The notes: a model not told the origin generated them from the sequence alone. DNA of 64,000 bases from Clostridia bacterium (GCA_045590195.1 JAZNQN010000044.1:19186-83185); one strand, 5' to 3'; shown: positions 33,988 to 61,632, counted from the stretch's first letter. Translations and numbers: made by a program.

Positions 33988-35214
33988 TTAGAACAATATT
34001 ATCAAAAACTGTGACACAAGCACAACTGCAATAAGTGCAATAGGATAAGTTGCCGCATAAGCTGATGCAACATCTTCAGTTCCTGAAACATTTATAAGTG
34101 TTCCAAGGGCCGGAGTTGATGTCATACCACCGCAAATTGAGCCAAGAGCATTGAGAAGATTAAGCTTTAGTACATATCTTGCAAAAAGATATCCAAGTAT
34201 CATTGGCAAAATTGTCATAACAGCGCCATATACAAAGTAAACCGGCTGGAAATTCTCAACAAATTTTGCTCCGCCTGCAACACCTGCACCGATTAAGAAA
34301 AGCATAAGGCCAAGCTCGCGGAAAACTTTAAGAGTTGGCTGTGGAGGCATAATGCTTACCATACCAACCTTTCCGAAGTGACCAAAAACAAGTGCCGCAA
34401 GAAGGCATCCGCCCGTTGTTGTAAGCGAAAAAGTTGTTCCCGAAAGGCCACTTGAAGAAAGCGGAATTTTAACCATTCCAATAATAATACCAATAACTGC
34501 CGCAATTGCGAAAGCGCATATACCAAATGAATCAAGCTCTAAAAGATTTTTGGAAACCTCTTTTTTCTCAGCTTTTTCAGCGGCAACAAGCTTTTCTCTT
34601 TCCTTTGCCATATCAGCGTTAACAATCTTTGGAACAAGCTGAACAAAAAGCACAACGCCGATTACACCAAAAATATATGCAATACCATTACCAACAGCAA
34701 CTATATCTTCATACATTTCTCCAACAGTTGCTTTTGCGGCTGAAAATGCCGGTGTTGAAGTAAGTGCGCCTGAGAGAAGCCCTGCAACCATAGCAGTAAA
34801 CTTTTCTGTGTTGGTTTCTCCAAGTGCTCTGCCAATGAGAATACAAATTACAGCCGAAATTCCCCCTGCAATTATAATTATAAGGCCAAGCATAACATAA
34901 GATTTAAAATTCTTTTTCATATTGCTGAAAAATTTTGGTCCGGCAATAAATCCAACGGATGTTACAAAAAGAATAAGGCCTATATTTTCAACAATTTTAA
35001 GTGCATCTTTTGTAAAATCGCCAAGCTGTGCCTGCAGAGTTTTATAAAAAAGGCAACCAAAAACCAATGCAGCAATAAATACGCCTGCAGTACCCAGCGA
35101 TACACCTTTTATTGTTATACGGCCGAGAAGGTAGCCTGCTGCTGAAATAATAAGTACTGAAAAAACTAGAAATGTAATTCCTGTTATGGGGATAACTCCA
35201 CCAAATAAACTCAT
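33988..35214 (-). CDS. YidE/YbjL/AAE-type (aspartate:alanine-exchanger family) permease lacking the central TrkA-C domains; candidate dicarboxylate (succinate) exporter
   Basis: Two homologous 5-6-TM halves joined by a short charged linker. N-terminal GYLLGRITIKGVSLGTAGVFIAALVFG is typical of the family. The start is at ATG 35214 (RBS AGAGG), not the ORF-track ATG 35277. Confidence 0.55.
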   Translation of the reverse strand: MSLFGGVIPITGITFLVFSVLIISAAGYLLGRITIKGVSLGTAGVFIAALVFGCLFYKTLQAQLGDFTKDALKIVENIGLILFVTSVGFIAGPKFFSNMKKNFKSYVMLGLIIIIAGGISAVICILIGRALGETNTEKFTAMVAGLLSGALTSTPAFSAAKATVGEMYEDIVAVGNGIAYIFGVIGVVLFVQLVPKIVNADMAKEREKLVAAEKAEKKEVSKNLLELDSFGICAFAIAAVIGIIIGMVKIPLSSSGLSGTTFSLTTTGGCLLAALVFGHFGKVGMVSIMPPQPTLKVFRELGLMLFLIGAGVAGGAKFVENFQPVYFVYGAVMTILPMILGYLFARYVLKLNLLNALGSICGGMTSTPALGTLINVSGTEDVASAYAATYPIALIAVVLVSQFLIILF

Positions 35215-35252
35215 TTTTAAAGACCTCTTTTCAAGTAAAATACACACAAATG

Positions 35253-35282
35253 CTATAATGAATCTGTACCGATTCATTATAG
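35253..35282 (-). promoter_or_regulatory. 12-bp perfect hairpin in the frdA-transporter spacer (possible attenuator or processing site)
   Basis: CTATAATGAATC (35253-35264) / GATTCATTATAG (35271-35282). On the minus-strand RNA it is followed by CAUUUGUGUGUAUUUU. Confidence 0.35.
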
Positions 35283-35307
35283 CATAACTTCAATTATTTT
35301 ACAAGTA

Positions 35308-36915
35308 TCAAATACCACTTTTCTGACCTGTGTAGTTTGGAAGAAGTTTAGGAGAAACCATATCGCCTGCAATGCCCGCCGCTTCTCTTTCAGCTTCAAA
35401 CGCAGCAATATGCTGGAGTGTAAGCTTGCCAACTTTAACATTTTTGCATTTAGCCGCCGCATTTTGACCTGCGTTTCTGCCAAATACAATAATATCTAAA
35501 AGTGAGTTACCCATAAGGCGGTTTCTGCCGTGAATTCCGCCAACAGCTTCGCCTGCAACATAAAGGTTTTCTACATTTGTTGTAGAACCATCAACATTTA
35601 TGTCAAGACCACCATTCTGATAGTGAAGTGTTGGGTAAACCAAAATTGGCTCCTTGCGGATATCAATTCCGTACTGACCAAACATTCTCATCATAGCAGG
35701 AATTCTTTTTTCAATTGTTCCCTCTCCACCTATTTTTTCAATCATAGGAGTATCAAGCCAAACACCAAGGCCGTTTCCTGTTTCAACGCCGTTGCCTCTG
35801 TCATTACATTCTCTGATAATAGAAGCCGCCGCAACGTCACGTGTTTCGAGAGGATGCATAAACACTTCGCCTTTTGAGTTTATAAGTTTGGCACCAAGTG
35901 AACGAACTTTTTCAGTAACAAGTGCACCGAAAATCTGCTGAGGATATGCAGCACCGGTTGGGTGATACTGCAAAGTTTCAGCATAAAGAAGCTTAGCCCC
36001 TACTCTGTAACCTAAAACAAGACCATCGGCAGTTGCGCCATAGTGATTCGATGTTGGGAAACCCTGATAATGCATTCTTCCTGCACCACCTGTTGCAATT
36101 ATGACAGTTTTAGCACGTGCAACCATAAGTTTTTCAGTTTCCATATTAAGGAGCACCGCACCTGCCGCGTTTCCGTTTTCATCAAGAATAATTTCGATTG
36201 CAGCTGTAAAATCAACAACAGGAATCTGTCTGTTTAAAACTTCATCTCGGAGTGTACGCATAATTTCAGCACCTGAATAGTCACGTGCAGCATGCATTCT
36301 CTTTCTTGATGTACCACCACCGTGAGTTGTAATCATTGTGCCATCTTCAGCTTTATCAAACTCAACGCCAAGGTTTGAAAGCCACCAAATAGCCTCAGGT
36401 GCATCGCAAACAAGTTTTGATAAAAGCTCGCGTTTAGCTGCAAAATGTCCGCCGCCAAAAGCATCAACAAAGTGAATTGCAGGGGAATCGTTTGGTTTGT
36501 CAGCCGCCTGAATACCACCTTCTGCCATCATTGTGTTGGCATCGCCAATACGAAGCTTTGTTACAATCATAACATCAGCCCCTGCCTCGTGAGCTTCGAT
36601 TGCGGCAGAAGAACCCGCTCCACCACCGCCAATTACAAGAACATCTACATCGTAGTCGGGTGCATCAAGGTTTACGTCTTCTGCTTTAATACGGCTTTTT
36701 GCCTCTAAAATTTCACAAAGCTCTTTTGGAACACACTGGCCTTTGTTAGGACCTATTTTAAGCTCAGAAAATTCGTCTTTTTTATAATCGGGATGATATG
36801 CCGCAAGCAAATCTTCTTTCTGTTTTGCAGTCATTCTGTCGGGCTCGTATGCAATATTTTTATCTCTCGCCGCCTCAACAGCTTTTATTGATTTTGTTAA
36901 TTCTTCTGAATACAT
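35308..36915 (-). CDS. Fumarate reductase/succinate dehydrogenase flavoprotein-like FAD protein (soluble, non-covalent-FAD type), 535 aa
   Basis: Dinucleotide fold VLVIGGGGAGSSAAIEA. LQYHPTG, TLHYQNGGL and LYVAGEAVGGIHGRNRLMGNSLLDIIVFGRNAG are FrdA/SdhA/NadB family motifs. GDANTMMAEGG replaces the usual SHT..A.GG histidyl-FAD site. Confidence 0.75.
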   Translation of the reverse strand: MYSEELTKSIKAVEAARDKNIAYEPDRMTAKQKEDLLAAYHPDYKKDEFSELKIGPNKGQCVPKELCEILEAKSRIKAEDVNLDAPDYDVDVLVIGGGGAGSSAAIEAHEAGADVMIVTKLRIGDANTMMAEGGIQAADKPNDSPAIHFVDAFGGGHFAAKRELLSKLVCDAPEAIWWLSNLGVEFDKAEDGTMITTHGGGTSRKRMHAARDYSGAEIMRTLRDEVLNRQIPVVDFTAAIEIILDENGNAAGAVLLNMETEKLMVARAKTVIIATGGAGRMHYQGFPTSNHYGATADGLVLGYRVGAKLLYAETLQYHPTGAAYPQQIFGALVTEKVRSLGAKLINSKGEVFMHPLETRDVAAASIIRECNDRGNGVETGNGLGVWLDTPMIEKIGGEGTIEKRIPAMMRMFGQYGIDIRKEPILVYPTLHYQNGGLDINVDGSTTNVENLYVAGEAVGGIHGRNRLMGNSLLDIIVFGRNAGQNAAAKCKNVKVGKLTLQHIAAFEAEREAAGIAGDMVSPKLLPNYTGQKSGI

Positions 36916-36927
36916 ATTGCGCCCTCC

Positions 36928-37602
36928 TTACTTTTCAATATCACGGTTATTATAAAGTTCTTTAATCTCATCAATTGGCTTTTGCATTAGAGCTTCAATA
37001 AGGTCATTGAAAGTACCATCTTTAATTTCTTTAACCCTTTCATCAAGATGGCCACAACCAGGAGCTAAATATTTACCGTTAAGTCTTCTTGCAAGCATTG
37101 CAACCTGTGGATGAGAAATACCTGCAGGACATCTTGAAGAACAAACGCCGCACATTACGCAGTCAAAAGATTCTTCAGCACATTTTTCATACTCAGCACG
37201 CTGTGCATAAGCAATATACTGCATTACATTAAGCTTCTGAGTACAAGCTTTTGTACAAGCATTACAGCCGATGCAGGAATAAATTTCAGGATAAAGCTGC
37301 ATCATAATCTGCTCAGTAGGTTTTACTTTTTCAATATCATAAATTTCTTTAACAAGCGGGAAGAATGGCAATGTAGCAATGTACATCTTATCTTCAACCT
37401 TTGTCTGACATGCAAGACAAGCTTTAAGTTCTCTGTCGCCCTCTATTCTGTAAATTGTGGCACATGCACCGCAAAAACCATTTCGGCATCCGCAACCACG
37501 TTTAAGCTGATAGCCTGCATATTCCATAGCACGCATAATTGTCATGCTGGCAGGTACTTCATATTTTTTACCGAACAAAAATATATTTACCATTTTTTCC
37601 AT
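36928..37602 (-). CDS. FrdB/SdhB-like iron-sulfur subunit (2Fe-2S plus two Cys4 ferredoxin motifs)
   Basis: CGCRNGFCGAC...C, CIGCNACTKAC and CVMCGVCSSRCP. The start is at ATG 37602, preceded by AAAGGAGA. The ORF-track start 37722 overlaps the upstream gene. Confidence 0.75.
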   Translation of the reverse strand: MEKMVNIFLFGKKYEVPASMTIMRAMEYAGYQLKRGCGCRNGFCGACATIYRIEGDRELKACLACQTKVEDKMYIATLPFFPLVKEIYDIEKVKPTEQIMMQLYPEIYSCIGCNACTKACTQKLNVMQYIAYAQRAEYEKCAEESFDCVMCGVCSSRCPAGISHPQVAMLARRLNGKYLAPGCGHLDERVKEIKDGTFNDLIEALMQKPIDEIKELYNNRDIEK

Positions 37603-37621: not shown

Positions 37622-38452
37622 TTAGTATTCGTCAGGCAGCTCGTCAAGCTGGTCACACCTGAAAACCGGGCCGTCTTTACATACATATTTAGAACCAATG
37701 TTGCATCTGCCGCATTTACCAACGCCGCACTTCATTTTAAGTTCCATAGTAGTATAAATCTGAGTTTTTTCAAAGCCAAGTTCCTGAAGGCCCTGAAGGG
37801 TAAATTTAATCATAATAGGCGGACCACAGATTATTGCTGTTTTATTCGTGTCAAACCCGAGTTCCTTTACATAGTTTGGAACAAAGCCAACATGGCCATC
37901 CCATCCATCCTGAGGGTTATCAATTGTAAGATGAACATTTATTCCTTCATCCTTACACCATTCGTCGATAATTTCTTTATAATCAACAAGGTCGTCCATA
38001 CTTCTTGAGCCGTAAACTATATCAATTTTACCATAGCGGTCACGATAGTGACGGCAGTAGTTGATAACTGAACGAAGCGGTGCAAGGCCGATACCGCCGG
38101 CAATAAAGAGCATATCTTTGCCTGCAAATTCGGTGTCAACAGGGAAAGGATTTCCGTAAGGGCCACGAATTGTAATTTGCTGGCCTACTTCTGCCTGATG
38201 AAGCCACTCGGTAACGCAGCCGCACTTTTTAATGGAAAACTCCATATATTCAGTATTTGTTGGAGAAGAAGTAATTGAAAACATAGCCTCTCCCACTCCG
38301 GGAATTGAAAGCATTGCGCATTGACCCGGTTTATGGTCGAATGCTTTTTTGCCGTCGGGTGTTAAAACGCGGAAGGTTTTAACATCGGGGGTATCAATTC
38401 TTACATCACAAATTGTACCAATTTTTGGAATCAATGGATCTTGATTATTCAT
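37622..38452 (-). CDS. FNR-fold FAD/NAD(P)H-binding protein with C-terminal 2Fe-2S (FlxA / AsrB / sulfhydrogenase-gamma-like)
   Basis: FIAGGIGLAPLRS and C-terminal KCGVGKCGRCNIGSKYVC. ATG 38452 lies 8 nt after GGAGG and gives an 8-nt overlap (ATGAATAA) with the upstream gene. Confidence 0.75.
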   Translation of the reverse strand: MNNQDPLIPKIGTICDVRIDTPDVKTFRVLTPDGKKAFDHKPGQCAMLSIPGVGEAMFSITSSPTNTEYMEFSIKKCGCVTEWLHQAEVGQQITIRGPYGNPFPVDTEFAGKDMLFIAGGIGLAPLRSVINYCRHYRDRYGKIDIVYGSRSMDDLVDYKEIIDEWCKDEGINVHLTIDNPQDGWDGHVGFVPNYVKELGFDTNKTAIICGPPIMIKFTLQGLQELGFEKTQIYTTMELKMKCGVGKCGRCNIGSKYVCKDGPVFRCDQLDELPDEY

Positions 38453-39452
38453 TGTCTGCACCTCCAAGTTCTTTCATAACCTTTACAATATTCATTGAAA
38501 TAGGACACTTTGAAAGGCATCTGCCACAACCAACACATCCGAATATTCCATCGTTATTTTCAGGGAAGTATACAAGTTTGTGCATAAATCTCTGACGGAA
38601 ACGTTCTTTCTGAGAATTACGGGAGTTGCCGTGAGCCATTTTAGTAAAATCGGAATACATACACGAATCCCAGCAACGAAAACGTTGAACACCATTTCCT
38701 GTGTTAAAATCTTTAATGTCATAGCACTGACAGGTTGGGCATACAAAAGTACAGGTTCCACAGCCAAGGCAGCTTTCAGAAAGTTCTTCCCATTTTGGGC
38801 TTTCAAAATACTTTTCTGTTTTACCTCCACCAAAAGCATCAGTTTTTAAATTTTTAAGTGGAAGTTTTTCAATGTAAGTGCGAATTTTTGCTTTTTCTTC
38901 ATCTGCGGCTACAGTATCGCACTCCTGGCCAATCCCTTCAAGAAGAGCAGTTCCTTTTTCAGTTTTTGCGTCGATATAAACCACATCATCAACAATTGTG
39001 CATTCAACATCTCCACCGGGTGCAGAAGCATCAATACCAAAAGCAGCACAAAAACAAGTTTCTTCAGGGCGCGAGCAAGCAACAGTTATTATAGTTGCTC
39101 CCTCTCTTCTTTTCTGATAGAATGTGTCAACAGGTTCTGAGAGAAAAACTCTGTCAAGAATTTCAAAGCTTTTAAGATCGCAGGCGCGAACACCAAAAAT
39201 CGCAAAATTACCAATATCTTCACGAATATCGATAACTTCTATATTTTTGCCTTCTGTTTTAAAGTGCATCATATTTTCAACCTGAGGAAAGAAAAAGTCT
39301 TTCGCGCTCCTGGTTGTGTTAAGTTTTTTGGAATATTCTATTCCTTCTTCCCATTTTTTAAATGAAGCACCTTCTTTTCCGTCAGCCGGGAGATAAAGTG
39401 GCATTTTATCGGCAACGGCCTTGAAAAAATCGCAAATGTTAATTTTACGCAT
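38445..39452 (-). CDS. Poly-FeS protein (FlxB / AsrA / sulfhydrogenase-beta-like)
   Basis: CLGCGTCTFVCPTCQCYD, CVGCGRCLSKCP and ETCFCAAFG. The start is ATG 39452 (9 nt after GGAG) or ATG 39461. Confidence 0.7.
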   Translation of the reverse strand: MRKINICDFFKAVADKMPLYLPADGKEGASFKKWEEGIEYSKKLNTTRSAKDFFFPQVENMMHFKTEGKNIEVIDIREDIGNFAIFGVRACDLKSFEILDRVFLSEPVDTFYQKRREGATIITVACSRPEETCFCAAFGIDASAPGGDVECTIVDDVVYIDAKTEKGTALLEGIGQECDTVAADEEKAKIRTYIEKLPLKNLKTDAFGGGKTEKYFESPKWEELSESCLGCGTCTFVCPTCQCYDIKDFNTGNGVQRFRCWDSCMYSDFTKMAHGNSRNSQKERFRQRFMHKLVYFPENNDGIFGCVGCGRCLSKCPISMNIVKVMKELGGADNE

Positions 39453-40437
39453 TTTCGCCATCTCCTTTCTCCACAGCCTCGGAAGGCTCTAAATCTTCTG
39501 TAGTGTAGTTTACAAGCGGAGCACGAAGGCCTACTTCTTCCCCTGCCTGATACTCACCATAGAAAGAGTTTATATCTTTTATAAACTTACGGTTTAAAAG
39601 ATGAAGTGGAATGTTTTGCGGACAAACTCTTGAACATTCGCCGCAATCTGTACATCTTCCGGCAACGTGAAAAGCTCTTATAATGTGAAACATTTTTTCT
39701 TCAAAGCTATCTGCTGCGGCTTTGTTTTCCACGCCTGATTTAGGATTGCCAAATACGCACTGTTCACAAGTACAAGCGGGACAGACATCGCGGCAGGCAT
39801 TACATCTTATACATCTTGAAAGCTCGCCCTGCCAGAAAGCAAATCTTTCATCGGCAGACATTTTTTCAAGGCGCTTAACTTCATCAAAGCGGTTAGAATC
39901 AATAATTTCGCCTTCGTCGCCAATAAGTTCATCGTATGCAACATGCTTGCGGCTTTTGCAAGAGATGCATCTTTCAGCTAAAACATCAGCTTTATTAAAT
40001 ACTTTTTCATCGCCATAAATTGATTTTACCAAAATTTCATCGCCGTTTTCCAAAATTTCAGAAACAGCAGAAATTTCAGCTTTAATTTTTGAAACATCAG
40101 TCATTCCATCGCAGGGAATTCCAACGGCATAAACTTTTTCGCGGTCTATGCGGTGTTCAGTTAAAAGCTGATTAAAACTGTATGTGTCACATGGTTTCAA
40201 GAAAACCAGCACTTTTCCATCTTTCTGGCATTCTTTTACTAGATATTTTGAAAAGTTTGCACCACAAAAAGCATTGTAAACAAAATCTTTTTTAAGAGAT
40301 TCGGCATCTTTAAACACACCGGGGGTTACATCGTATGAAAACTCGCCCTCTTTCCAGCCTAAAACTCTGTCAACCTTTCCGCTTTCAAGGAGGTTTAATG
40401 CTTTATCTATAAGAATATCACGATTTATTGTTTGCAT
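39445..40437 (-). CDS. FeS protein, FrhB-like N-terminus plus 2x[4Fe-4S] (FlxC-like)
   Basis: CIRCNACRDVCPACTC and CTDCGECSRVCP. It overlaps mvhD by 13 nt. Confidence 0.65.
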   Translation of the reverse strand: MQTINRDILIDKALNLLESGKVDRVLGWKEGEFSYDVTPGVFKDAESLKKDFVYNAFCGANFSKYLVKECQKDGKVLVFLKPCDTYSFNQLLTEHRIDREKVYAVGIPCDGMTDVSKIKAEISAVSEILENGDEILVKSIYGDEKVFNKADVLAERCISCKSRKHVAYDELIGDEGEIIDSNRFDEVKRLEKMSADERFAFWQGELSRCIRCNACRDVCPACTCEQCVFGNPKSGVENKAAADSFEEKMFHIIRAFHVAGRCTDCGECSRVCPQNIPLHLLNRKFIKDINSFYGEYQAGEEVGLRAPLVNYTTEDLEPSEAVEKGDGENA

Positions 40438-40859
40438 CTTAAATCCTCCAATCTTTTGTTTTCGCCAAGAGCAGCAACTGCTTCGGCAAATTCATTCATT
40501 GTTTGCGCAAATTTTGCGCCTTCAGCCGCAGAAACCCATTCAACACGGGTTCTTTCTTTTTCAATACCGAGAAAATCGAGCATTGAGAAAAGAAGCGACA
40601 TTCTTCTTCTTGTATAGTAGTTACCAGAAGTATAATGGCAGTCGCCAGGGTGGCAACCACAGATTATAACCCCGTCTGCTCCACGCTGAAATGCTCTTAA
40701 AATAAACATTGGGTTTACCCTACAAGAGCATGGAACACGAATTATTTTAACTTCGGCAGGGTAACTGAGTCGGTTATTACCTGCAAGGTCGGCACCGGCA
40801 TAAGAACACCAGTTACAGCAAAATGCCACTATTAAAGGTTTTTTCTCTTCTATTTGCAT
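40425..40859 (-). CDS. mvhD: MvhD/FlxD-like methyl-viologen-reducing-hydrogenase delta-subunit family protein
   Basis: IVAFCCNWCSYAGADLAG, RVPCSCRV and ICGCHPGDCHY. Confidence 0.85.
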   Translation of the reverse strand: MQIEEKKPLIVAFCCNWCSYAGADLAGNNRLSYPAEVKIIRVPCSCRVNPMFILRAFQRGADGVIICGCHPGDCHYTSGNYYTRRRMSLLFSMLDFLGIEKERTRVEWVSAAEGAKFAQTMNEFAEAVAALGENKRLEDLRCKQ

Positions 40860-42844
40860 ATTGCATCCACCTCCGCTAAAATTTGTGCATTTTTAAAGCC
40901 TTTTAAATCCATTGCACCTGATGGACAGGCAACTGTACAAGCACCGCAGCCCTGACAAACAGCTTCATTAACCTGAGCTACGCGGCGCATTTTTGTTGTT
41001 CTGTTTGGCATACGGAACTCTTTAACTACATAAGTTATTGCACCATATGGGCAAACTCTTTCGCAACTACTGCATCCGTTACACATCATTTCGTCTGATG
41101 CGGCAATACAAGGATTACCAAGAAGTTTATCTTTGCATAAAAGGCCGATAACCTTTGAAGCCGCCGCTCCCGCCTGGGAAACAGTTTCAGGAATATCTTT
41201 CGGGCCTTGACAAGCACCTGACAAAAATACGCCTGCGGTTGGGCTTTCAACCGGACGAAGCTTTGGATGAGCCTCGGTAAAGAAATCGTTTGTATCCATA
41301 CTTGCAGTGAGCATTGTTGCAAGAGGACGAGCTGATTTATCAGGCTCGATTGCGGCTGCTAAAACAACCAAATCTGCATCAATGTTAATCTGTTTATTTG
41401 AAATTAAATCGCTTGCACGCACTTTAAGCTTATCGCCTTCAGGCATAATTTTGCCAACCATACCTTTAATGTAGTGAACACCAAATTCCTCGGTTGCTCT
41501 TCTGTAAAATTCGTCAAAGTTTTTACCGGGAGTTCTGACATCGATGTAGAATACTGTTACGTCAGTATCCGGATATTTATCACGAGTGAGCATTGCGTGT
41601 TTCGCTGTGTACATACAACAAATTTTAGAACAGTATTCCTTACCTTTTTCATTGCATGCATCGCATCTTGAACCTACGCACTGAACGAAAACGATTTTTT
41701 CAGGATGTTTTCCGTCTGAAGGGCGTAAGAGTTTACCTGCTGTTGGGCCTGCCGCATTGGTAAGACGCTCAAATTCGAGAGAAGTTATAACATCTTTCGA
41801 CTGGTTATAAGCATACTCATCAAATTTTTCCATACTGATAGGATTAAAGCCTGTTGCAACAACAATTGCACCATATTTTTCTTCTATAATTTCATCCTGT
41901 TGCTTATAATTGATAGCTCCTGCTGCACAAACCTTTTCACAAAGGCCGCACTTGCCATTTTTAAGCATATTACAGTAATCAGCATCAATTGTTGCAACCT
42001 TTGGAACTGCCTGAGCAAAAGGAATATAAACCGCTCTTCTCATATCCATTCCAAGGTTAAATTCATTAGGAACTTTCTTTTGAGGACATTTTTCTGTACA
42101 AAGGCCGCAACCTGTACATTTAGTTTCGTCAACAAATCTTGCTTTTTTCTTAATTTTTACATCAAAATTTCCTACAAAACCGGAAACTGCTTCAACTTCG
42201 CTATAGGAAAAAATTCTTATTTTATCGTTCTGTGCAACATCAACCATTTTTGGAGTTAAAATACAAGCCGCACAGTCAAGTGTTGGGAAGGTTTTATCAA
42301 TCTGCGCCATCTTGCCGCCGATTGTAGGATTTTTTTCAACTATATCTACCGGGAAACCTGCATCGGCAATATCAAGAGCTGTTTGAATACCTGCAATACC
42401 GCCACCGATAACCAAAGCACGCTTTGTAACAGGGCTTTCGCCAGGTGTAAGCGGAGCGTTAAGGTTAACCTTTGCAACAGCCGCTTTGCCCAAAATAATT
42501 GCTTTTTCAGTTCCTGTAGGGATATCTTTATGAACCCATGAGCACTGCTCACGAATGTTTGCAATTTCAACCATATAAGGGTTAATCCCTGCACTTTCAG
42601 CGGTTTTTCTGAAAGTATTCTCGTGCATACGGGGTGAACAGGAACAAATAACTATACCGGTAAGATTATGCTCTTTAATAGCATCTTTAATCATTTCCTG
42701 TCCCGCTTGGGAACACATATACTGATAGTTAGTGGAGAAAACAACACCAGGCTCTTTTTTCAAGGCTTCGCTAACTGCTTCAACATCAACAGTTGCCGCA
42801 ATATTGCTTCCGCACCAACATACGAATACACCAATTCTTTGCAT
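40850..42844 (-). CDS. hdrA: HdrA-like FAD/FeS heterodisulfide-reductase subunit A (full-length, bifurcation-type architecture)
   Basis: N-terminal Cys-rich domain (VCWCGSN, ICSCSPR). FAD fold ALVIGGGIAGIQTALD. Inserted ferredoxin CTGCGLCTEKCP/CGLCEKVC. VQCVGSR. C-terminal CNGCSSCERVCP and CQGCGACTVACP. Confidence 0.85.
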   Translation of the reverse strand: MQRIGVFVCWCGSNIAATVDVEAVSEALKKEPGVVFSTNYQYMCSQAGQEMIKDAIKEHNLTGIVICSCSPRMHENTFRKTAESAGINPYMVEIANIREQCSWVHKDIPTGTEKAIILGKAAVAKVNLNAPLTPGESPVTKRALVIGGGIAGIQTALDIADAGFPVDIVEKNPTIGGKMAQIDKTFPTLDCAACILTPKMVDVAQNDKIRIFSYSEVEAVSGFVGNFDVKIKKKARFVDETKCTGCGLCTEKCPQKKVPNEFNLGMDMRRAVYIPFAQAVPKVATIDADYCNMLKNGKCGLCEKVCAAGAINYKQQDEIIEEKYGAIVVATGFNPISMEKFDEYAYNQSKDVITSLEFERLTNAAGPTAGKLLRPSDGKHPEKIVFVQCVGSRCDACNEKGKEYCSKICCMYTAKHAMLTRDKYPDTDVTVFYIDVRTPGKNFDEFYRRATEEFGVHYIKGMVGKIMPEGDKLKVRASDLISNKQINIDADLVVLAAAIEPDKSARPLATMLTASMDTNDFFTEAHPKLRPVESPTAGVFLSGACQGPKDIPETVSQAGAAASKVIGLLCKDKLLGNPCIAASDEMMCNGCSSCERVCPYGAITYVVKEFRMPNRTTKMRRVAQVNEAVCQGCGACTVACPSGAMDLKGFKNAQILAEVDAICK

Positions 42845-42858: not shown

Positions 42859-43245
42859 CTATTTACTATATTTTCTCATTGCACTTACAATTGCCTGTTG
42901 TGGCAACTGTTCATCTAAAAGTGAAGGTATTGCATCAGCTTTAAGATGATTTTCGCCCTGCTGACGTACTTTTAAAAGCCTTACTGCTTCAATAAGTTTT
43001 GCCGGCTCTACGCCTCTGGGACAACGCTCAACACAGGCAAAACAAGAAAGACATTTGAAAATTGAAGGCGACTCCATAAGTTTATCAACATCACCGTTTT
43101 CAACCATATAAACAAACTGATGAGGATGATATTCCATTTCATCATAAGAAGGACATGTACCTGTGCATTTGCCGCATTTCATACATTTTTTAGGATTAAC
43201 ACCGCTGATGCGCAAAATTTCGTTTGAAAGCTCTGTTTTATTCAT
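42859..43245 (-). CDS. hdrC: HdrC-like 2x[4Fe-4S] subunit
   Basis: CMKCGKCTGTCP and CLSCFACVERCP. ATG 43245 lies 9 nt after AAGGAGG and gives an 8-nt ATGAATAA overlap with hdrB. Confidence 0.8.
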   Translation of the reverse strand: MNKTELSNEILRISGVNPKKCMKCGKCTGTCPSYDEMEYHPHQFVYMVENGDVDKLMESPSIFKCLSCFACVERCPRGVEPAKLIEAVRLLKVRQQGENHLKADAIPSLLDEQLPQQAIVSAMRKYSK

Positions 43246-44032
43246 TTGCACAGCCCTCCTTTACGCCAAGCGCCTGTGCTAAAAGCTCGGTAAAATATTT
43301 AATTTCTATACCGTCGGCGTGTTTTTCAAGATTATATTTGCAAAGTGGGCAAGCTGTTACTATCATATCTGCACCCATTTTTTTGGCACTTTCCAAAATA
43401 GCAATACTCTTCTTCTTTGCACTTTCACTATCTTCAAGAGCTATATATCCGCCGCAGCATTCGTTTCTGTATGGCGAAACTATTGCTTCCGCACCCATAG
43501 CTTTTACAAGATTTTCAAGAATCTGCGGATTTTCGCTGTCGTCCATCTGCATAACTTTACCAGGACGAAGCAAAAGACAACCATAATATGGAGCAATTTT
43601 TTTACCCTCAAGAGGATTTGTAACTTTTTTGGCAATTTCTTCAAAGCCAATTTCATCTCTCAAAAGCTCAAGATAATGAATAACCTCTGCATCTCCCTCA
43701 TAAGGCGTATCAAGATTCATATAGTTATTTGCTTTAAAAGCAAAATCGCTATCGTTATTAAACTGATAATTTGTTTGTTTTATTACATTATGGCAGGCAG
43801 CACAAACTGTTACAAGCTTCTGACCTTTTTCTTTTGCCTCTACAAGGGCACGAATTGAGGAAAGCTTTGTTGCAATTTCATCCTTCGAAGTTGTAAAAAC
43901 TCCGCCGCAGCACTGCCAGTTATTTATTTCTTCCAGATTAACCCCTAATGCCGCCGCACTTTCTCTTGCGTATTTATCAAGTTCTTTTGCTTTGGTTTTA
44001 AGAGTACAACCGGGATAATATGAAAAATTCAT
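43238..44032 (-). CDS. hdrB: HdrB-like subunit with two CCG domains
   Basis: YYPGC...NWQCCGG...CAACHN and YYGC...ECCGGY...CPLCKYN. The start is at ATG 44032 (MNFSYYPGC) after AGGGAG. Confidence 0.85.
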   Translation of the reverse strand: MNFSYYPGCTLKTKAKELDKYARESAAALGVNLEEINNWQCCGGVFTTSKDEIATKLSSIRALVEAKEKGQKLVTVCAACHNVIKQTNYQFNNDSDFAFKANNYMNLDTPYEGDAEVIHYLELLRDEIGFEEIAKKVTNPLEGKKIAPYYGCLLLRPGKVMQMDDSENPQILENLVKAMGAEAIVSPYRNECCGGYIALEDSESAKKKSIAILESAKKMGADMIVTACPLCKYNLEKHADGIEIKYFTELLAQALGVKEGCANE

Positions 44033-44054: not shown

Positions 44055-45431
44055 TTATACCATCTGTTCAGGATGGAACACTTCGTCAAATTTTTCTTCG
44101 GTTAAAAAGCCAAGCTCGATACAAGCCTCTTTAAGAGAAATATTGTCTTTATAAGCTTTTTTAGCTGTTTTAGCCGCATTTTCATAACCGATATAAGGGT
44201 TAAGCGCAGTAACAAGCATAAGTGAATTATGAAGATTATGATGCATTTTTTCGCGGTTTGCCTTAATGCCTACTGCACAGTTTTTGTTAAATGAAACAAT
44301 GGCTTCTGCCATAAGACGTGCCGACTGCAAAAAGTTATATATGCATACAGGCATAAATACATTAAGTTCAAAGTTACCCTGTGAAGCTGCCATAGAAACA
44401 GCAACATCATTACCCATTACCTGAACGGCAACCATTGTTACCGCTTCACACTGAGTTGGGTTAACTTTACCCGGCATAATTGATGAGCCCGGTTCATTTT
44501 CAGGGATGAAAATTTCTCCAAGGCCATCACGAGGACCGCTTGCAAGCCAACGGATATCGTTTGCTATTTTCATCATATCGCAGGCAAGGGCTTTAATTGC
44601 ACCATGTGCAAAAACAAGCTCGTCTTTTGAAGTTAATGCGTGAAATTTATTCTCAGCAGTTACAAATGGTTTTCCTGTTATTTTCGAAACCTCTGCCGCA
44701 ACGCCTTCTGAAAAACCTTTTGGAGCATTAAGTCCTGTTCCAACTGCAGTTCCGCCAAGTGCAAGTTCACAAAGCGGCTTTACGCTTTGCTTCAAAAGCT
44801 CTACATCTTTCTGGAGGCTTGATCTCCAGCCGCTGATTTCCTGGCTGAATTTTATTGGAGTTGCATCCTGAAGATGTGTTCTTCCGCTTTTTACTATATC
44901 TTCGTTTTCTTTTTCAAGGCGTGAAAAAGTATCGATAAGAGTTTGGACAGCAGGAATAAGTTTATCTTCTATCATCAAAACTGCGGAAATATGCATAGCT
45001 GTAGGGAAAGTATCGTTTGACGACTGGCTCATATTAACATCATCATTAGGATGAAGAATACTTTTGCCCGCAATCTGATTTCCACGGTTTGCAATTACTT
45101 CGTTTGCATTCATATTCGACTGAGTGCCGGAGCCCGTTTGCCATACAACAAGAGGAAAATGGCTATTAAGCTTGCCGCTTATAACCTCATCGCAAGCACT
45201 GGAAATTGCCGAAAGTTTTTCTTCAGTCATTTTTTCGGGTTTCAAAGCGTGATTTGCGATTGCTGCAGCTTTTTTCAAAATGCCGAATGCATGTGTAATT
45301 TCACGTGGCATTGTTTCAATATTTACACCGATTTCAAAATTTTCGTGACTTCTCTGGGTTTGAGCCGCCCACAACCTGTCGGCAGGAACTTTAACCTCTC
45401 CCATCGAGTCGTGTTCAATACGATAATCCAT
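44055..45431 (-). CDS. fumC: Class II fumarate hydratase
   Basis: [15 protein letters not shown] signature. N-terminal [21 protein letters not shown] is FumC-like rather than AspA-like. Confidence 0.85.
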
Positions 45432-45449: not shown

Positions 45450-46406
45450 TTATATATCCATTTGTTTTATAAGTGATTTCAAAGTATCTGCGCTATGGTG
45501 AAGTGCGCGAACCTCTTCATCATTAAGAGGCAAAAGCATTTTTCCACAAGCGCCCTTGTTGTCAACAACATTGAGAAGGCTCAAAGAAACATCATCTATT
45601 CCATATTCGCCGTGAAGCATTGTTGAAACAGTCATAGTAGTATTTATACCGCCGAGAATACATTTACAAATGTGGCAAACAGATACTGAAACAGCGTAGA
45701 ATGTTGCACCTTTTCTTTCAATAACTCTTCCGCCTGATTTGCGAACATAATCCTCAACTTCATCAAAGTCTATACTTGGCAGCTTAAAGCCTTTCTGAGA
45801 AAAATCGCCTACTACCGAAGACTGACCTTCCTGAATAGGAATGTTAGATACATTTGCAATTGACCACGGAACAAAAGAAGAATCACCATGTTCACCAAGA
45901 ACATAGGCGTGAACATTTTTCTGGTTGATTGAGTAATACTCCGAAAGCCTTGCACGAAGGCGGGCGGTATCAAGAATAGTTCCCGAACCTATAATCTGAT
46001 TTTCAGGAAGCCCTGAACATTTAAAGAATGTGTAAGTTAAAATGTCAACAGGATTGCTCACTATAAGGTAAACTGCATTTGGTGCATAGCGAACAATTTC
46101 AGGAATAATCTGTTTAGTAATATTAACATTTGTCTGAGCAAGGTCAAGCCTTGACTGACCTGGCTTTCTTGCAATACCTGAAGTTACTATTACTATATTT
46201 GAGCCTACTGCATCCTGATATGAACCTGCGTAAACTGTTGCTGATGAGCAAAACGGTGTTCCCTGGCGAATGTCAAGTGCTTCGCCAAGTGCTTTTTCCT
46301 GATTAATATCAATAAGCACAATTTCAGATGCCAGCCCCATAACAGTTAAAGTATACGCAATTGTTGAGCCAACACTACCTGTTCCTATTATTGTAATTTT
46401 GTTCAT
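45450..46406 (-). CDS. mdh: LDH-like malate dehydrogenase
   Basis: NKITIIGTGSVGST Rossmann motif and catalytic LGEHGDS. The substrate loop GIARKPGQSRLDL has Arg at the LDH Gln102-equivalent position. Confidence 0.7.
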   Translation of the reverse strand: MNKITIIGTGSVGSTIAYTLTVMGLASEIVLIDINQEKALGEALDIRQGTPFCSSATVYAGSYQDAVGSNIVIVTSGIARKPGQSRLDLAQTNVNITKQIIPEIVRYAPNAVYLIVSNPVDILTYTFFKCSGLPENQIIGSGTILDTARLRARLSEYYSINQKNVHAYVLGEHGDSSFVPWSIANVSNIPIQEGQSSVVGDFSQKGFKLPSIDFDEVEDYVRKSGGRVIERKGATFYAVSVSVCHICKCILGGINTTMTVSTMLHGEYGIDDVSLSLLNVVDNKGACGKMLLPLNDEEVRALHHSADTLKSLIKQMDI

Positions 46407-46546: not shown

Positions 46547-47980
46547 TTATATTATACTGTTTGCATCACTCACGGCGTTATATATAGTTTTGTCTGCGGC
46601 CTTTTTTCCGAAGTTATCTATCATATTTTTATCGCGCGATGTGTGAGTAAGGCACCCTGCCCCACCAATACAACCACCAACACAAGCCATACCTTCTATA
46701 AAGTTTGCATCGAGCATCCCTTTGCTTTTCTTCAGAAGGTTTATTTTACACTCTTCAATTCCGTCGCACGAAATTGCATTAAGTGTAAAGTCGGTTACTC
46801 CTTTTTCTTTAAGCCCCTGTGCAACTGCATCGGCAAGGCCACCACAACGGGCAAAAATTCTTCCGAAATACGATGCGCCGTCAAGTTCGCTTTCTTCAAG
46901 AGAAGTAATATCTATATCGCGGCTGTCAAAAAGCGCCTGAAGCTCTTCAAAAGTTAAAACAGTATCAACATATTTTGAAACTTCTGCTTTCTGTGCCTCA
47001 GCTTTTTTTGCAGTACATGGACCGATAAAAATAACTTTTGCACTTTCATCGTGTTCTTTAATGTATTTTGCAATAGTTGCCATTGGCGAAAGATTATGTG
47101 AAATATTTTCAGAAAGGTTATCAAAATTTTGCTCAATATATTTTACAAACGCAGGGCAACAAGAGCTTGTTAAAAATCTTTTTTCTGCAAGCTCCTCTGC
47201 TTCGGATGCTGCAACCATATCAGCGCCAAGTGCAGCCTCAACAACATTGAAAAATCCGAGTTCTTTAATACCTGTCACAACCTGACCAAGCCTTGCATAG
47301 TTAAACTGACTTGAAATTGTAGGTGCAACAACGGCATAAATATTATACTTTGTATTATTTTCGCTACCTTTTAAAAGGTCGATTGCATCGAGAATAAATG
47401 ATTTATCTGTAATTGCGCCAAATGGGCACTGATATACACAGGCTCCACACGCAATACATTTATCATCAAGAATTTTTGCCGACATATCTACATTCGTTTC
47501 AATTGCATCCACCTTGCAAGCGCTTTGGCACGGACGACGGTAGTTTGCAATTGCGTTGAACGGACAAACTTTTGCGCAGGCACCACAGTTTTTACACTTG
47601 GTTTTATCAATGTGCGCTTTTGGGTTTTCATCAAAAGTTATGGCACCAAATTTGCAAACATCTTCACATCTGTGTGCCAGGCATCCGCGGCATGAATGAG
47701 TTACCTCGTATCCGCCCATAGGACATTCATCGCAGGCAATACTGATAACTTCAATTACATTTTTATTCCTTTTGTTACCACCCATCGCCATTTTAACTCT
47801 TTTTGCAAGAATGGCTCTTTCTTTATAAACGCAGCAACGCATAGTTGCCTCTTTCCCGGGCACAAGTATTTCCGGGATGTCGGATATATTTTCCATAAGA
47901 GTACCTGCCCAGTACAGACGGGCAACTTCTCTTAATACTTTATATTTCAGGTGTTGAACTTTAGTATCAAACTTTCTCAT
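46547..47980 (-). CDS. [FeFe]-hydrogenase-family protein with N-terminal poly-ferredoxin region (HfsD-like)
   Basis: H-cluster motifs LTSSCCPAF, GPCTAKKAE and EGMACVGGCIGGAGC. Upstream FeS motifs CKNCGACAKVCP and CIACGACVYQCP. Start ATG 47980 (after AAGGTGA) is preferred over GTG 47989. Confidence 0.75.
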   Translation of the reverse strand: MRKFDTKVQHLKYKVLREVARLYWAGTLMENISDIPEILVPGKEATMRCCVYKERAILAKRVKMAMGGNKRNKNVIEVISIACDECPMGGYEVTHSCRGCLAHRCEDVCKFGAITFDENPKAHIDKTKCKNCGACAKVCPFNAIANYRRPCQSACKVDAIETNVDMSAKILDDKCIACGACVYQCPFGAITDKSFILDAIDLLKGSENNTKYNIYAVVAPTISSQFNYARLGQVVTGIKELGFFNVVEAALGADMVAASEAEELAEKRFLTSSCCPAFVKYIEQNFDNLSENISHNLSPMATIAKYIKEHDESAKVIFIGPCTAKKAEAQKAEVSKYVDTVLTFEELQALFDSRDIDITSLEESELDGASYFGRIFARCGGLADAVAQGLKEKGVTDFTLNAISCDGIEECKINLLKKSKGMLDANFIEGMACVGGCIGGAGCLTHTSRDKNMIDNFGKKAADKTIYNAVSDANSII

Positions 47981-47990
47981 AATATTCACC

Positions 47991-49163
47991 TTAAAAATAA
48001 CTTACTTTAATTCTTTTACCCATTTTTTCAAGATGTTTGGATAACTCTTCTACCATATTCATTTTGATATTAAAATTTATGGGCAAATCAGGATTTTGAT
48101 GAGCAGGATTTACAGCTCTTCCAACATAAAAGTTAATATCGGTTGCTTCTTCAAACAAAAGTTGAGAAATTAACGACGCAGCATCTTTACCCATTTCCCA
48201 GTCATTATAAAGGCGGTTTTCATTAACAAAGTCCTCGGCATATTTAAGCACATGGCTCATTGTAATTACACCTTCAGTTACCAGGTCAACGCCATCAATT
48301 ATCGCTACTGGCGGAATTCCTTGTTTTTCAAACTTCAAAGTTGGTTTTACTTCCTTGCCAAGGTATTCGGCTGCAATTGAAGATGTTGTACCGCCGCAAA
48401 CAATGTGTTTACCCTCTTTTGCAAAGAAAAGTGCCATCATTTTTCTGCAATCATCTCTGTTTGATGGTGGACCAAAAACAAGGTTTATAGGCGCTCTTTT
48501 TCTTATTCTTACAACGCAGGCACTGGTATCATCGCCCGGTTCTCCGCCATAAAGTTTATTACATTCATCAGTTAAAATGGTTGCCAGGGTTTTTGCGTTA
48601 TATCCGGCACATTCAATAGTTTCCATAAACTCAGTTATCTGCTCAGTTTTCCAACCGAAATTATAAATATTTCCAATTCCTGCATGAGGACAACCATCGC
48701 TCATTGCAAGAAATAAATCGTTTTCGCAAAGCTTTATTCTCGAACGAAGCATCTTTTTATCGCCAATTGAAAATGTTTCCTGGTTATATTCAAAGTTCTT
48801 TCCGTCGCGAAGCAAAATTACAGGCGGATTATCATATTGAATAATTTCTGCAAACTCATTATTAACAATATGAATAATTGTAAATGTTGAATATGCCACT
48901 CCCCTTTGCGAACAAACGGGAAGTGTTGCTGCAATAGTTGAAACGCAGTCTTCAATTGACAGCCCTGCTGCCAGAAGAGTTGAAATTATTTTAGAAGTAA
49001 GTGTTGACAAAATGCCAGCTTTAACACCACTTCCAAGCCCATCGGCAAGAACAATTACAGATGAATTTTCGCCTGAGCTTACAACATCTATATGATCGCC
49101 GCAAAGCTCCTCACCGTGGTGGTTTAATGAGCGATATCCAATATCAGCACACAAATCATTCAT
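47991..49163 (-). CDS. SpoIIE/PP2C-type serine phosphatase with ~170-aa C-terminal domain (HfsC-like)
   Basis: GEELCGDHIDVV, VLADGLGSGVKAGILS and LAMSDGCPHAG. 8-nt ATGAATGA overlap with hydS. Confidence 0.75.
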   Translation of the reverse strand: MNDLCADIGYRSLNHHGEELCGDHIDVVSSGENSSVIVLADGLGSGVKAGILSTLTSKIISTLLAAGLSIEDCVSTIAATLPVCSQRGVAYSTFTIIHIVNNEFAEIIQYDNPPVILLRDGKNFEYNQETFSIGDKKMLRSRIKLCENDLFLAMSDGCPHAGIGNIYNFGWKTEQITEFMETIECAGYNAKTLATILTDECNKLYGGEPGDDTSACVVRIRKRAPINLVFGPPSNRDDCRKMMALFFAKEGKHIVCGGTTSSIAAEYLGKEVKPTLKFEKQGIPPVAIIDGVDLVTEGVITMSHVLKYAEDFVNENRLYNDWEMGKDAASLISQLLFEEATDINFYVGRAVNPAHQNPDLPINFNIKMNMVEELSKHLEKMGKRIKVSYF

Positions 49164-50838: not shown

Positions 50839-51095
50839 TCCCCTATATTTAATACTTTAAGTATATGTTCCTTAAAAAAGTCATCGAACTTATGTATTGT
50901 AAGTCCTACAAAAACTTCATCGTTTATCTGAACGGTTACGCCTTCGCGATTGCATTTTCCAATGCAAAAGCTTCCGGCAACAGAAACTTTGTCGCCAATA
51001 TTATAATCACTTACTGCTTTTTCAAAAGCATTTGCTATTTCATATGAACCTTTAATATGACAGGAACTGCCAATACAAACTAATACTTTAAGCAA
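50835..51095 (-). CDS. Thioredoxin-like [2Fe-2S] ferredoxin (86 aa, HfsA-like position)
   Basis: C7-x4-C12...C44-x3-C48 pattern (VCIGSSCH...SFCIGKC). TTG start and a 4-nt GTGA overlap with hydS. Confidence 0.65.
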   Translation of the reverse strand: MLKVLVCIGSSCHIKGSYEIANAFEKAVSDYNIGDKVSVAGSFCIGKCNREGVTVQINDEVFVGLTIHKFDDFFKEHILKVLNIGE

Positions 51096-51120
51096 AAATA
51101 AATCATTCCTTTTTGATTTT

Positions 51121-51152
51121 TTAAAAGGCCGCAGTGCGGTTGCACCGCGGCC
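51121..51152 (-). terminator. GC-rich terminator separating the two small ferredoxin genes
   Basis: GGCCGC-A-GTGC GGTT GCAC-C-GCGGCC, followed on the minus strand by CUUUUAA. Confidence 0.65.
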
Positions 51153-51160
51153 ATATGTTA

Positions 51161-51409
51161 TTATTTTACAAGAGGAAGTATATTATCTTTGAAAAACGCT
51201 CTTGCCTCTTTTTCGGTAATTCGGAATGTTTTGTCATCTACTTTTACAGAAACGCCAACATTTGTACAATTTTTCATACAAAATGACGCCGCAAGTTCAA
51301 TTTTATCATGAAGATTATTATCTTCAATCATATGCTGAAATGATGACACAACATTATGTGCTCCGTTTAAATGACACGCGCTTCCAATGCATACACTAAT
51401 TTTTATCAT
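51161..51409 (-). CDS. Thioredoxin-like [2Fe-2S] ferredoxin (82 aa), last gene of the nfn-hyd operon
   Basis: VCIGSACH...SFCMKNC. It is a paralog of the 86-aa protein and starts 2 nt after the hydA stop. Confidence 0.7.
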   Translation of the reverse strand: MIKISVCIGSACHLNGAHNVVSSFQHMIEDNNLHDKIELAASFCMKNCTNVGVSVKVDDKTFRITEKEARAFFKDNILPLVK

Positions 51410-51411
51410 TA

Positions 51412-53109: not shown

Positions 53110-53113
53110 TTTC

Positions 53114-55466: not shown

Positions 55467-55488
55467 AGTTTTACTCCTTTGTTTTTAA

Positions 55489-56898: not shown

Positions 56899-56923
56899 TT
56901 TAAATTCCTCCTTCTAAATCAGT

Positions 56924-57772: not shown

Positions 57773-57927
57773 AAAAATTCACCTCTCTATATTTTAAATA
57801 ATTGTTATATTACATACATAACTTTACATAATATATAATAACACAATTACACTTTTTTGCATATTATAAAATTTGCATATCCGTTATATACTTATAGGCA
57901 TATGGTTATTTCGTTTTTACATAACAA

Positions 57928-57958
57928 CAGCGCGATACATTTATTATGTACCGCGCTG
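57928..57958 (-). terminator. Terminator after hydA (set 2)
   Basis: CAGCGCG-x-TACAT TTATT ATGTA-x-CGCGCTG, followed on the minus strand by a U-rich tract. Confidence 0.6.
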
Positions 57959-57974
57959 CTTAAAATTATTTAAA

Positions 57975-59711: not shown

Positions 59712-59730
59712 AATTATCTGCTCCCCTCTC

Positions 59731-61605: not shown

Positions 61606-61632
61606 AATCAAACCTCCAAGTTCAAATCTGGT

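Follow-up and report, generated by a model that had tools for sequence, protein, structure and literature searches.

From which donor does a fumarate reductase-like pair draw its electrons when no membrane partner is encoded beside it, and in which direction does it work? This question is raised by a flavoprotein and an iron–sulfur (FeS) subunit encoded at positions 35308 to 37602, on the minus strand, of a 64,000-nucleotide (nt) stretch of DNA from Clostridia bacterium (GCA_045590195.1, JAZNQN010000044.1:19186-83185), referred to below as the window. A first-pass annotation had described the pair as FrdAB-like with type-E-like hallmarks, tuned for fumarate reduction, and served by a CCG- or ferredoxin-type protein rather than by a quinone site. 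Our analysis leads us to propose, with moderate confidence, that the pair is the terminal fumarate-reducing module of a cytoplasmic multisubunit, probably electron-bifurcating oxidoreductase, in which reduced nicotinamide adenine dinucleotide (NADH) would reduce both fumarate and ferredoxin. The features of the pair on which the argument depends are the following, in window coordinates.

35308–36915, minus strand: flavoprotein (FrdA/TfrA-like) of 535 residues with a shortened C-terminus; Pfam FAD_binding_2; predicted catalytic, fumarate-reducing subunit.
36661–36915, minus strand: 85-residue N-terminal extension of the flavoprotein, by translation, with invariant His41-Pro42, Gly55 and Gly59.
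36535–36537, minus strand: codon of Asn127, at the position of the 8-alpha-N3-histidyl flavin adenine dinucleotide (FAD) histidine, from phmmer alignment and translation.
36928–37602, minus strand: FeS subunit (FrdB/TfrB-N-like) of 224 residues, with no CCG domain, one [2Fe-2S] cluster and two predicted [4Fe-4S] clusters.
37126–37161, minus strand: all-Cys motif CVMCGVCSSRCP, by translation, in the place of the classical SdhB/FrdB 3Fe-4S motif.

Domains were assigned with Pfam and NCBIfam profiles, the latter judged against their curated cut-offs, and homologs of known structure were sought among PDB chains. The flavoprotein combines an N-terminal GxGxxG dinucleotide fold with a full-length FAD_binding_2 domain (PF00890, 6e-66; residues 91–472 against profile positions 1–414 of 414), which places it in the SdhA/FrdA/NadB superfamily, and SdhA and FrdA chains from the PDB match it with E values of 1e-46 to 1e-63, their catalytic residues aligned. 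The top NCBIfam model is TfrA (NF004900; 5.8e-101, 338.7 bits against a cut-off of 718, covering model positions 6–413 of 546), followed by the SdhA/FrdA and NadB models, all of them far below their curated cut-offs. Judged by these scores, the flavoprotein is a member of the superfamily that falls outside every curated family. AlphaFold2 models of the pair were poor (predicted local distance difference test, pLDDT, 59.5 and 62.3) because the sequences in the input alignments are about 85% identical; a Foldseek search with the flavoprotein model re-found FrdA, SdhA and Fcc3 at a template modeling (TM) score of about 0.44, confirming the superfamily and giving nothing on the extension or on interfaces.

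The histidine that carries covalent FAD had been read at first pass as replaced by asparagine, and this reading holds. In phmmer (HMMER) alignments to solved SdhA chains, which set the register, the SdhA histidine lies opposite Asn127 in GDANTMMAEGG; the reference contexts are RSHTVSAQGG in Escherichia coli (1nek_A) and GKAHTVMAEGG in M. smegmatis (7d6v_A), together with the avian (1yq3_A) and human (8gs8_A) chains. Asn127 is invariant among the close homologs (34/34; alignment A1) and throughout a distant set that comprises full-length, extension-bearing relatives (10/10) and environmental relatives with 48–60% identity (80/80). A search of 1.8 billion representative proteins gave full-length matches down to 40% identity. 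With Asn127, the flavoprotein lacks the histidyl-FAD histidine expected of succinate:quinone oxidoreductases and quinol:fumarate reductases (SQR/QFR) of types A–D.

The active-site contexts are retained as well, as had also been noted. All fumarate-binding and catalytic residues of SdhA align, with H318 (QYHPTG), T334-E335-x-x-R338 (VTEKVR), R359 (LETRDV), H431 (HYQNGG) and R466 (HGRNRL) standing in register as the HPT histidine, the Thr-Glu-x-x-Arg motif, the proton-donor arginine, the second histidine and the second arginine, respectively, and they are conserved in both the close homologs and the distant relatives. A histidine in the covalent register, or missing substrate-binding residues, had been named beforehand as observations that would speak against the description; the alignment instead has Asn at the register and the Arg and His residues in place. 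In E. coli FrdA, His44 mutants with noncovalent FAD reportedly reduce fumarate and do not oxidize succinate. By analogy with these mutants, loss of the histidyl link would be expected to lower the flavin potential and to leave a one-way fumarate reductase.

We note that TfrA/Sdh1-like proteins of 540–610 residues keep an 'AH T' at the histidine site and have no N-terminal extension. A separate clade of about 400–420 residues (P0284, P0289, P0292, P0303, P0306, P0308, P0315, P0319, P0331 and P0361) has no extension either; its histidine site is occupied by Asn or Lys, and its catalytic loop has PET in place of TEK. It is probably a different, uncharacterized reductase family.

The two ends of the flavoprotein set it apart further. 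It ends 36–50 residues past the conserved core, at a point where E. coli SdhA has about 170 residues more and the TfrA model about 133. With this short tail and the added extension, the family has thus shed most of the C-terminal helical region and acquired an N-terminal module. The first-pass annotation had found no recognizable motif in the 85-residue extension and had named a mis-called start as the observation that would undo it. The flavoprotein ATG at 36915, however, lies 7 nt past GGAGG and 12 nt past the stop codon of the FeS gene, residues 1–88 are conserved as strongly as the core in the 34 close homologs, and the homologs, 530–538 residues long, align from residue 1. All full-length relatives down to 40% identity combine an extension of 77–95 residues with Asn at the histidine site, and of the four invariant positions (alignment A4) the His-Pro dyad is present in 79/79 environmental relatives. 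The extension is therefore genuine and the start correctly called, because a ribosome-binding site, the conservation of residues 1–88 and the occurrence of the extension down to 40% identity all speak for it. A profile of the extension found no match in the PDB or Pfam (best E 0.3 and 0.07).

One relative, P0242 (727 residues; L082, 5250–7433), is a natural fusion of the two subunits in which the extension forms the junction, directly after the FeS domain: residues 1–221 correspond to the FeS subunit (40% identity) and residues 230–727 to the flavoprotein (56%), and the 7.7-kb contig has no Hdr genes. From this fusion we conclude that the FeS subunit and the flavoprotein act together. A mis-called start as the source of the extension was rejected on this fusion as well as on the ribosome-binding site, the conservation from residue 1 and the homolog lengths.

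The FeS subunit is likewise sharply defined. Its ATG is preceded by a ribosome-binding site, AAGGAGA, and its homologs are also 224 residues long. The cysteines are arranged as C39-x4-C44-x2-C47...C65, then CIGCNACTKAC, then CVMCGVCSSRCP, the last two being complete CxxCxxCxxxC motifs formed by C110/113/116/120 and by C148/151/154/158-P159. In alignment A3, which extends down to 26% identity, neither the twelve cysteines nor P159 vary, and the eight ferredoxin cysteines and the proline are complete in 69/72 environmental partner genes, so that the all-Cys last motif reported at first pass extends well beyond this locus. The CxxxxxCxxxCP motif that marks the [3Fe-4S] cluster of SQR/QFR types A–D is not found here, as CVMCGVCSSRCP has four cysteines, for which the cluster is predicted from sequence. 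Three further cysteines, C37, C62 and C141, are invariant in the close gut clade and not conserved in distant members.

Profile matches place this subunit near FrdB/SdhB (FeS-family profile, E about 2e-7) and among generic dicluster ferredoxin domains. The TfrB model (NF004898) matches its N-terminus only (1.6e-10, 40 bits against a cut-off of 385), and Foldseek matched only the N-terminal 2Fe-2S beta-grasp of its model. The fused TfrB architecture, an FeS module with two CCG domains, is absent: the FeS subunit has no CCG domain, and the CCG domains stand on a separate HdrB.

The pair closes a packed minus-strand operon that reads malate dehydrogenase, fumarase, HdrB, HdrC, HdrA, FlxD, FlxC, FlxB, FlxA, FeS subunit, flavoprotein and transporter, its genes overlapping by 8–17 nt or separated by gaps of at most 22 nt. 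Besides the pair, its members are as follows.

45450–46406, minus strand: NAD-dependent enzyme of the malate/lactate dehydrogenase family, first gene of the putative reductive branch (Pfam Ldh_1_N and Ldh_1_C).
44055–45431, minus strand: class II fumarase FumC (Pfam Lyase_1, 2.9e-111, and FumaraseC_C).
43238–44032, minus strand: HdrB-like protein of 264 residues from the ATG at 44032, with two CCG domains (Pfam CCG, twice); proposed link from HdrC to the FeS subunit.
42859–43251, minus strand: HdrC-like protein with 2x[4Fe-4S] (NCBIfam CoB_CoM_SS_C, 1.7e-19; Pfam Fer4_17 and Fer4_8).
40850–42844, minus strand: HdrA, with FAD and several [4Fe-4S] clusters, putative bifurcating flavoprotein (NCBIfam HdrA2, 3.4e-237, 789 bits, residues 3–663).
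40425–40859, minus strand: FlxD, MvhD-like [2Fe-2S] adaptor (Pfam FlpD, 6.6e-56).
39445–40437, minus strand: FlxC-like FeS protein (Pfam 4Fe-4S dicluster domains, residues 205–276).
38445–39461, minus strand: FlxB-like FeS protein, AsrA/sulfhydrogenase-beta-like (Pfam Fer4_22, 7.8e-31; NCBIfam ShyB, 1.3e-50, and AsrA, 2.2e-44).
37622–38467, minus strand: FlxA-like NAD(P)H-binding flavoprotein with a [2Fe-2S] site, proposed point of electron entry (Pfam FAD_binding_6, NAD_binding_1 and DHODB_Fe-S_bind; NCBIfam AsrB-like, 5.3e-59).
33988–35277, minus strand: Asp-Al_Ex (AspT/YidE/YbjL) transporter, candidate succinate exporter (Pfam Asp-Al_Ex, 8.2e-60, in two stretches).

All seven subunit types of a FlxABCD–HdrABC system are thus encoded together with their expected domains. 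FlxD aligns with the MvhD part at the C-terminal end of the HdrA2 model (643–774), and HdrA and FlxD together cover that model. The HdrB-like protein aligns end to end, from residue 1, with catalytic methanogen HdrB (8rvv_B, E=1.2e-29; 5odc_B) and keeps both C...CCG...CxxC motifs; its top NCBIfam match is an SdhE-like model, the anchor of methylmenaquinol:fumarate reductase (148 bits against a cut-off of 500), with HdrB at 135 bits and also under its cut-off. No membrane-anchor gene is present among the open reading frames of the operon, whose sole membrane protein is the transporter. The first-pass annotation had placed HdrB-like and HdrC-like genes next to the pair, which is not quite the case, as five genes (HdrA, FlxD, FlxC, FlxB and FlxA) lie between. 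Its interpretation is supported but incomplete: with HdrA, FlxD and FlxABC missed, a full Flx–Hdr assembly was taken for a simple CCG partner.

The arrangement is strongly conserved. A collection with one genome per species has at least 588 stretches that code for a close relative, and some of the protein clusters hold thousands of member sequences; synteny was read from the best 80 of these stretches (81–87% identity, about 85% at the protein level), all of them from gut or rumen Clostridia, either metagenome-assembled genomes or the isolate Yeguia hominis. The order HdrB-HdrC-HdrA-FlxD-FlxC-FlxB-FlxA-FeS-flavoprotein is identical in all 54 loci with enough flank (54/54), FlxC is syntenic in 66/80 loci, and the transporter lies 3' of the flavoprotein in 52/80. 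Fumarase is found in 52 of the 80 loci and malate dehydrogenase, 5' of fumarase, in 46, in a sample where only 54 flanks reach HdrB. Among the environmental relatives, 32 loci have at least 5 kb upstream, and 26 of these hold Hdr genes and 13 a 2-oxoacid:ferredoxin oxidoreductase (OFOR); HdrB stands immediately upstream of the FeS gene in 24/48 judgeable loci. Locus L081 reads OFOR-HdrA-MvhD-HdrC-HdrB-FeS-flavoprotein.

Taken together, the two functional proposals of the first-pass annotation fare well at the level of sequence and comparative genomics. The family-wide loss of the histidine, the intact dicarboxylate site and the operon with malate dehydrogenase, fumarase and transporter point to an enzyme tuned for fumarate reduction, and the missing anchor gene, the co-operonic HdrB and HdrC in 54/54 loci and the direct HdrB–FeS adjacency in half of the judgeable environmental ones argue for a CCG/ferredoxin partner rather than a quinone site. 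The traits seen at first pass are, by these alignments, family traits and not chance.

We hypothesize that the assembly would work as follows. NADH would be oxidized at FlxA, with its electrons passing via FlxB, FlxC and FlxD to the FAD of HdrA, which would split the electron pair. One electron would go uphill to ferredoxin, and the other downhill through HdrC and the two HdrB CCG clusters to the FeS subunit (its two [4Fe-4S], then its [2Fe-2S]) and from there to the noncovalent FAD of the flavoprotein, where fumarate would be reduced to succinate. Overall, the stoichiometry would read 2 NADH + fumarate + oxidized ferredoxin -> 2 NAD+ + succinate + reduced ferredoxin, and with malate dehydrogenase, fumarase and transporter the operon would provide a self-contained branch from oxaloacetate to succinate, with export, that yields low-potential electrons. 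The path from NADH to fumarate is thermodynamically allowed, because the standard potentials (E0') are -320 mV for NAD and +33 mV for fumarate (PMC5861303). Complex formation, bifurcation, the cluster types and a direct, thiol-free transfer from HdrB to the FeS subunit are here inferred. By their domain content, HdrB and the FeS subunit are the two halves of methanogen TfrB, and TfrAB, Hdr and the type E enzymes were linked earlier (PMC2754724). Furthermore, HydABC hydrogenases and an Nfn-like pair next door offer nearby ferredoxin sinks.

Several points weigh against this proposal. In the literature searched, full text included, we found no purification or assay of a fumarate-linked Flx–Hdr enzyme, and the presence of HdrA and Flx is the only ground on which bifurcation would be assigned. 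Both CCG motifs of HdrB are complete and thus compatible with thiol/disulfide chemistry, and the low-pLDDT AlphaFold2 models are uninformative on any interface. In a minority of relatives, moreover, the pair lies beside a NuoF-like gene (L083) or with nothing close by (L085, L164), which makes it a portable module that does not itself imply bifurcation; the distant relatives P0250, P0256 and P0278 have no informative neighbors. The commonest partner of this portable pair is Hdr. In L083 (9366–12891), a 47%-identical pair is followed by the NuoF-like gene (Complex1_51K and NADH_4Fe-4S) in place of Hdr, in a neighborhood with cytochrome c, DsrE and rhodanese genes; from its gene content, this locus may encode a simpler, three-subunit NADH:fumarate reductase.

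Taking these points into account, we considered what else the operon could encode. The Flx and Hdr proteins might serve as a mere electron wire in a nonbifurcating soluble NADH:fumarate reductase that leaves ferredoxin unreduced, since electron flow from NADH to fumarate is strongly exergonic alone and the L083 pair has only a NuoF-like NADH-dehydrogenase gene beside it. Hydrogenobacter thermophilus reportedly has a five-subunit soluble NADH-dependent fumarate reductase, a comparable outcome. Enzymes of this soluble, NADH-dependent kind are described in PMC13147460. HdrA, which is full-length and has its complete set of ferredoxin domains, and an MvhD-like adaptor are nevertheless strictly conserved with the pair and more elaborate than a wire needs, and the OFOR in 13/32 environmental loci is a ferredoxin user, so that we regard this explanation as unlikely. 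Quite unlikely, in our judgment, is a thiol-mediated process in two steps, in which electrons from Flx-HdrABC go to some disulfide, of a small thiol or of a DsrC-like protein, and HdrB and the pair then reoxidize the thiol to reduce fumarate, as in methanogen thiol:fumarate reductase. The intact CCG motifs and the end-to-end alignment with catalytic methanogen HdrB fit such chemistry, TfrA is the best curated match of the flavoprotein, and published papers label homologs 'putative thiol:fumarate reductase'; however, the FeS subunit has no CCG domain, the operon encodes one CCG protein only and no candidate carrier, and one site would need both to produce the thiol and to use it up, with no net gain over direct transfer. 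To our knowledge, coenzyme M and coenzyme B are not found in Clostridia, which also counts against a thiol intermediate.

We see still less room for another substrate or direction, whether an L-aspartate-oxidase-like activity, reduction of another enoate, or succinate dehydrogenation feeding Hdr, and rate these as very improbable. NadB is also without the histidine and shares the active site (its model scores 265 bits), and the neighboring transporter is of the aspartate:alanine exchanger family, but the NadB models all fall far under their cut-offs, most relatives have fumarase and malate dehydrogenase in the operon, and succinate (+33 mV) cannot drive the reduction of NAD+ or ferredoxin. Loss of covalent FAD itself disfavors succinate oxidation. 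In addition, Pseudoclostridium thermosuccinogenes, which has a like operon, excretes succinate (PMC7282089). Finally, the all-Cys third motif and the CCG protein of the operon, whose top NCBIfam match is the SdhE anchor of methylmenaquinol:fumarate reductase, bear a likeness to a membrane-associated quinol:fumarate reductase, classical or of type E. With no SdhC/D genes, no covalent-FAD histidine (type E SdhA has covalent FAD, PMC2754724), scores that all fall two- to fivefold short of the curated cut-offs, and a CCG protein that is always followed by HdrC, HdrA and MvhD, we give this reading next to no credence.

If the NADH-driven, bifurcating reduction of fumarate and ferredoxin that we favor is correct, quinone-free Clostridia would conserve energy in fumarate reduction through reduced ferredoxin, usable by Rnf, hydrogenases or Nfn, and would need no membrane quinol step; fumarate would become one of the few high-potential acceptors by which flavin-based bifurcation is driven, and HdrB-type CCG clusters would be shown able to hand electrons to a protein partner. 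A bolder version, which we hold tentatively and consider possible rather than probable, is that this is the first Hdr bifurcating system with an organic C=C acceptor in place of a disulfide, in which the HdrB CCG clusters are a pure relay into the docked pair, the His-Pro extension is a docking or flavin-shielding element that offsets the lost C-terminal domain, and the whole could be a major unrecognized route to succinate and reduced ferredoxin in gut and rumen Clostridia. The operon occurs in hundreds of uncultured gut and rumen Clostridia and in at least one cultured species, Yeguia hominis, and because it is so highly conserved across them, it bears on gut succinate producers and on the engineering of succinate-producing strains. 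New here are the breadth of the distribution and a well-marked set of sequence traits that define the family. Overall, we consider the system to be of moderate interest, as it is widespread and sharply defined, with a function read from sequence.

The surroundings of the operon yielded some further observations. The Asp-Al_Ex family includes a succinate exporter (PMC9527358). The true start of the transporter is probably an internal Met (MSLFGG...). Between the flavoprotein stop and the transporter, at 35250–35285 on the minus strand, lies a 15-bp perfect hairpin with a T-rich tail, which overlaps the first codons of the transporter open reading frame, and a promoter-like site, TTGTAA-17-TATAAT, is found at 35304–35276; by these elements the transporter may be separately regulated. 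Counts in the promoter and terminator scan were near background. Directly upstream of the operon, on the minus strand, is a dense block of ferredoxin, NADH and H2 genes (46547–62121), with two HydABC-type [FeFe]-hydrogenase sets (51412–55466 and 57975–62121), an NfnAB-like pair (55489–57772), a PAS-domain hydrogenase-like protein (49156–50838) adjoining a SpoIIE-type phosphatase (47991–49163), and an [FeFe]-hydrogenase-like open reading frame (46547–47989); this block fits a ferredoxin-centered redox economy. Near the start of the window are genes for a phage-type integrase of 475 residues (462–1889, plus strand) and for a serpin-domain protein of 586 residues (2444–4204, minus strand). Serpins are uncommon in bacteria.

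How does this system compare with those already known? The closest counterpart is the 'succinate operon' of P. thermosuccinogenes, published in 2019/2020, which is co-expressed as one unit and has been proposed to bifurcate (PMC7282089). Compared by gene order and gene length, the two agree: that operon consists of fumC, hdrBCA-flxDCBA and genes for an FeS protein of 224 residues and a flavoprotein of 534. It thus has, like the operon here, fumC, seven Flx–Hdr genes and two fumarate reductase genes, for which NADH-driven fumarate reduction coupled to ferredoxin was proposed, and the sizes are close (the fumarate reductase genes measure 1603 and 676 nt there, 1608 and 675 nt here; HdrB, 784 nt there and 795 nt here; PMC7282089). 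It differs in its last gene, which encodes a hypothetical protein of 83 residues rather than an Asp-Al_Ex transporter, and in its host, a thermophile outside the gut and rumen lineage. In tubeworm symbionts and Thioflavicoccus mobilis, tfrAB is interspersed with flxABCD-hdrABC and korABCD, and the products have been proposed to form one bifurcating complex (PMC6315080; PMC13147460). These clusters resemble the environmental relatives described above, in which OFOR, Hdr and FeS-flavoprotein genes are clustered, but they serve the reductive tricarboxylic acid cycle in autotrophic Gammaproteobacteria, whereas the setting here is fermentative and the operon is without a 2-oxoglutarate:ferredoxin oxidoreductase. 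Desulfovibrio vulgaris has a FlxABCD–HdrABC system (Ramos et al. 2015, cited in PMC7282089 and PMC6315080) that shares all seven subunit types; there, the proposed high-potential acceptor is a disulfide (DsrC), while the operon here adds a dedicated fumarate reductase pair and has its genes in inverted order (hdrBCA-flxDCBA).

The fumarate reductase pair itself has several partial counterparts. Methanogen TfrAB is likewise soluble and built from a fumarate-reductase module and a CCG module (PMC2754724), yet its CCG domains are fused in TfrB, its TfrA-like representatives keep the histidine, and it has no extension; the pair here scores below half of the TfrAB cut-offs and its flavoprotein is without about 130 C-terminal residues. 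The type E label given at first pass describes a likeness and no more. Like the type E SQR of Sulfolobus and Acidianus (SdhABEF) and the methylmenaquinol:fumarate reductase of Campylobacter, the system has a second [4Fe-4S] motif, present in this FeS subunit, in place of [3Fe-4S], and a CCG protein, here a putative partner, in place of transmembrane anchors (PMC2754724). Type E enzymes, however, keep covalent FAD and react with quinone at the membrane (PMC2754724), whereas the flavoprotein here has Asn, the CCG protein is part of a full HdrABC-MvhD set, and the curated cut-offs are all missed (MFR_Fp_SdhA, 225 bits against 1100; MFR_FeS_SdhB, 18.7 against 600). Shewanella Fcc3 and NadB share noncovalent FAD and the same catalytic residues, but they are single-subunit or heme-linked enzymes without FeS subunit, Hdr partner or N-terminal extension, and the NadB scores lie under their cut-offs (TIGR00551, 265 bits against 452.75; other NadB models, 157–257 against 472–726). 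For TfrAB, for type E SQR, for classical QFR and for NadB alike, a defining feature was looked for and found missing, which places the pair outside all four families. The idea of a bifurcating Flx–Hdr fumarate reductase is already published and still hypothetical, and to it the system described here adds another case.

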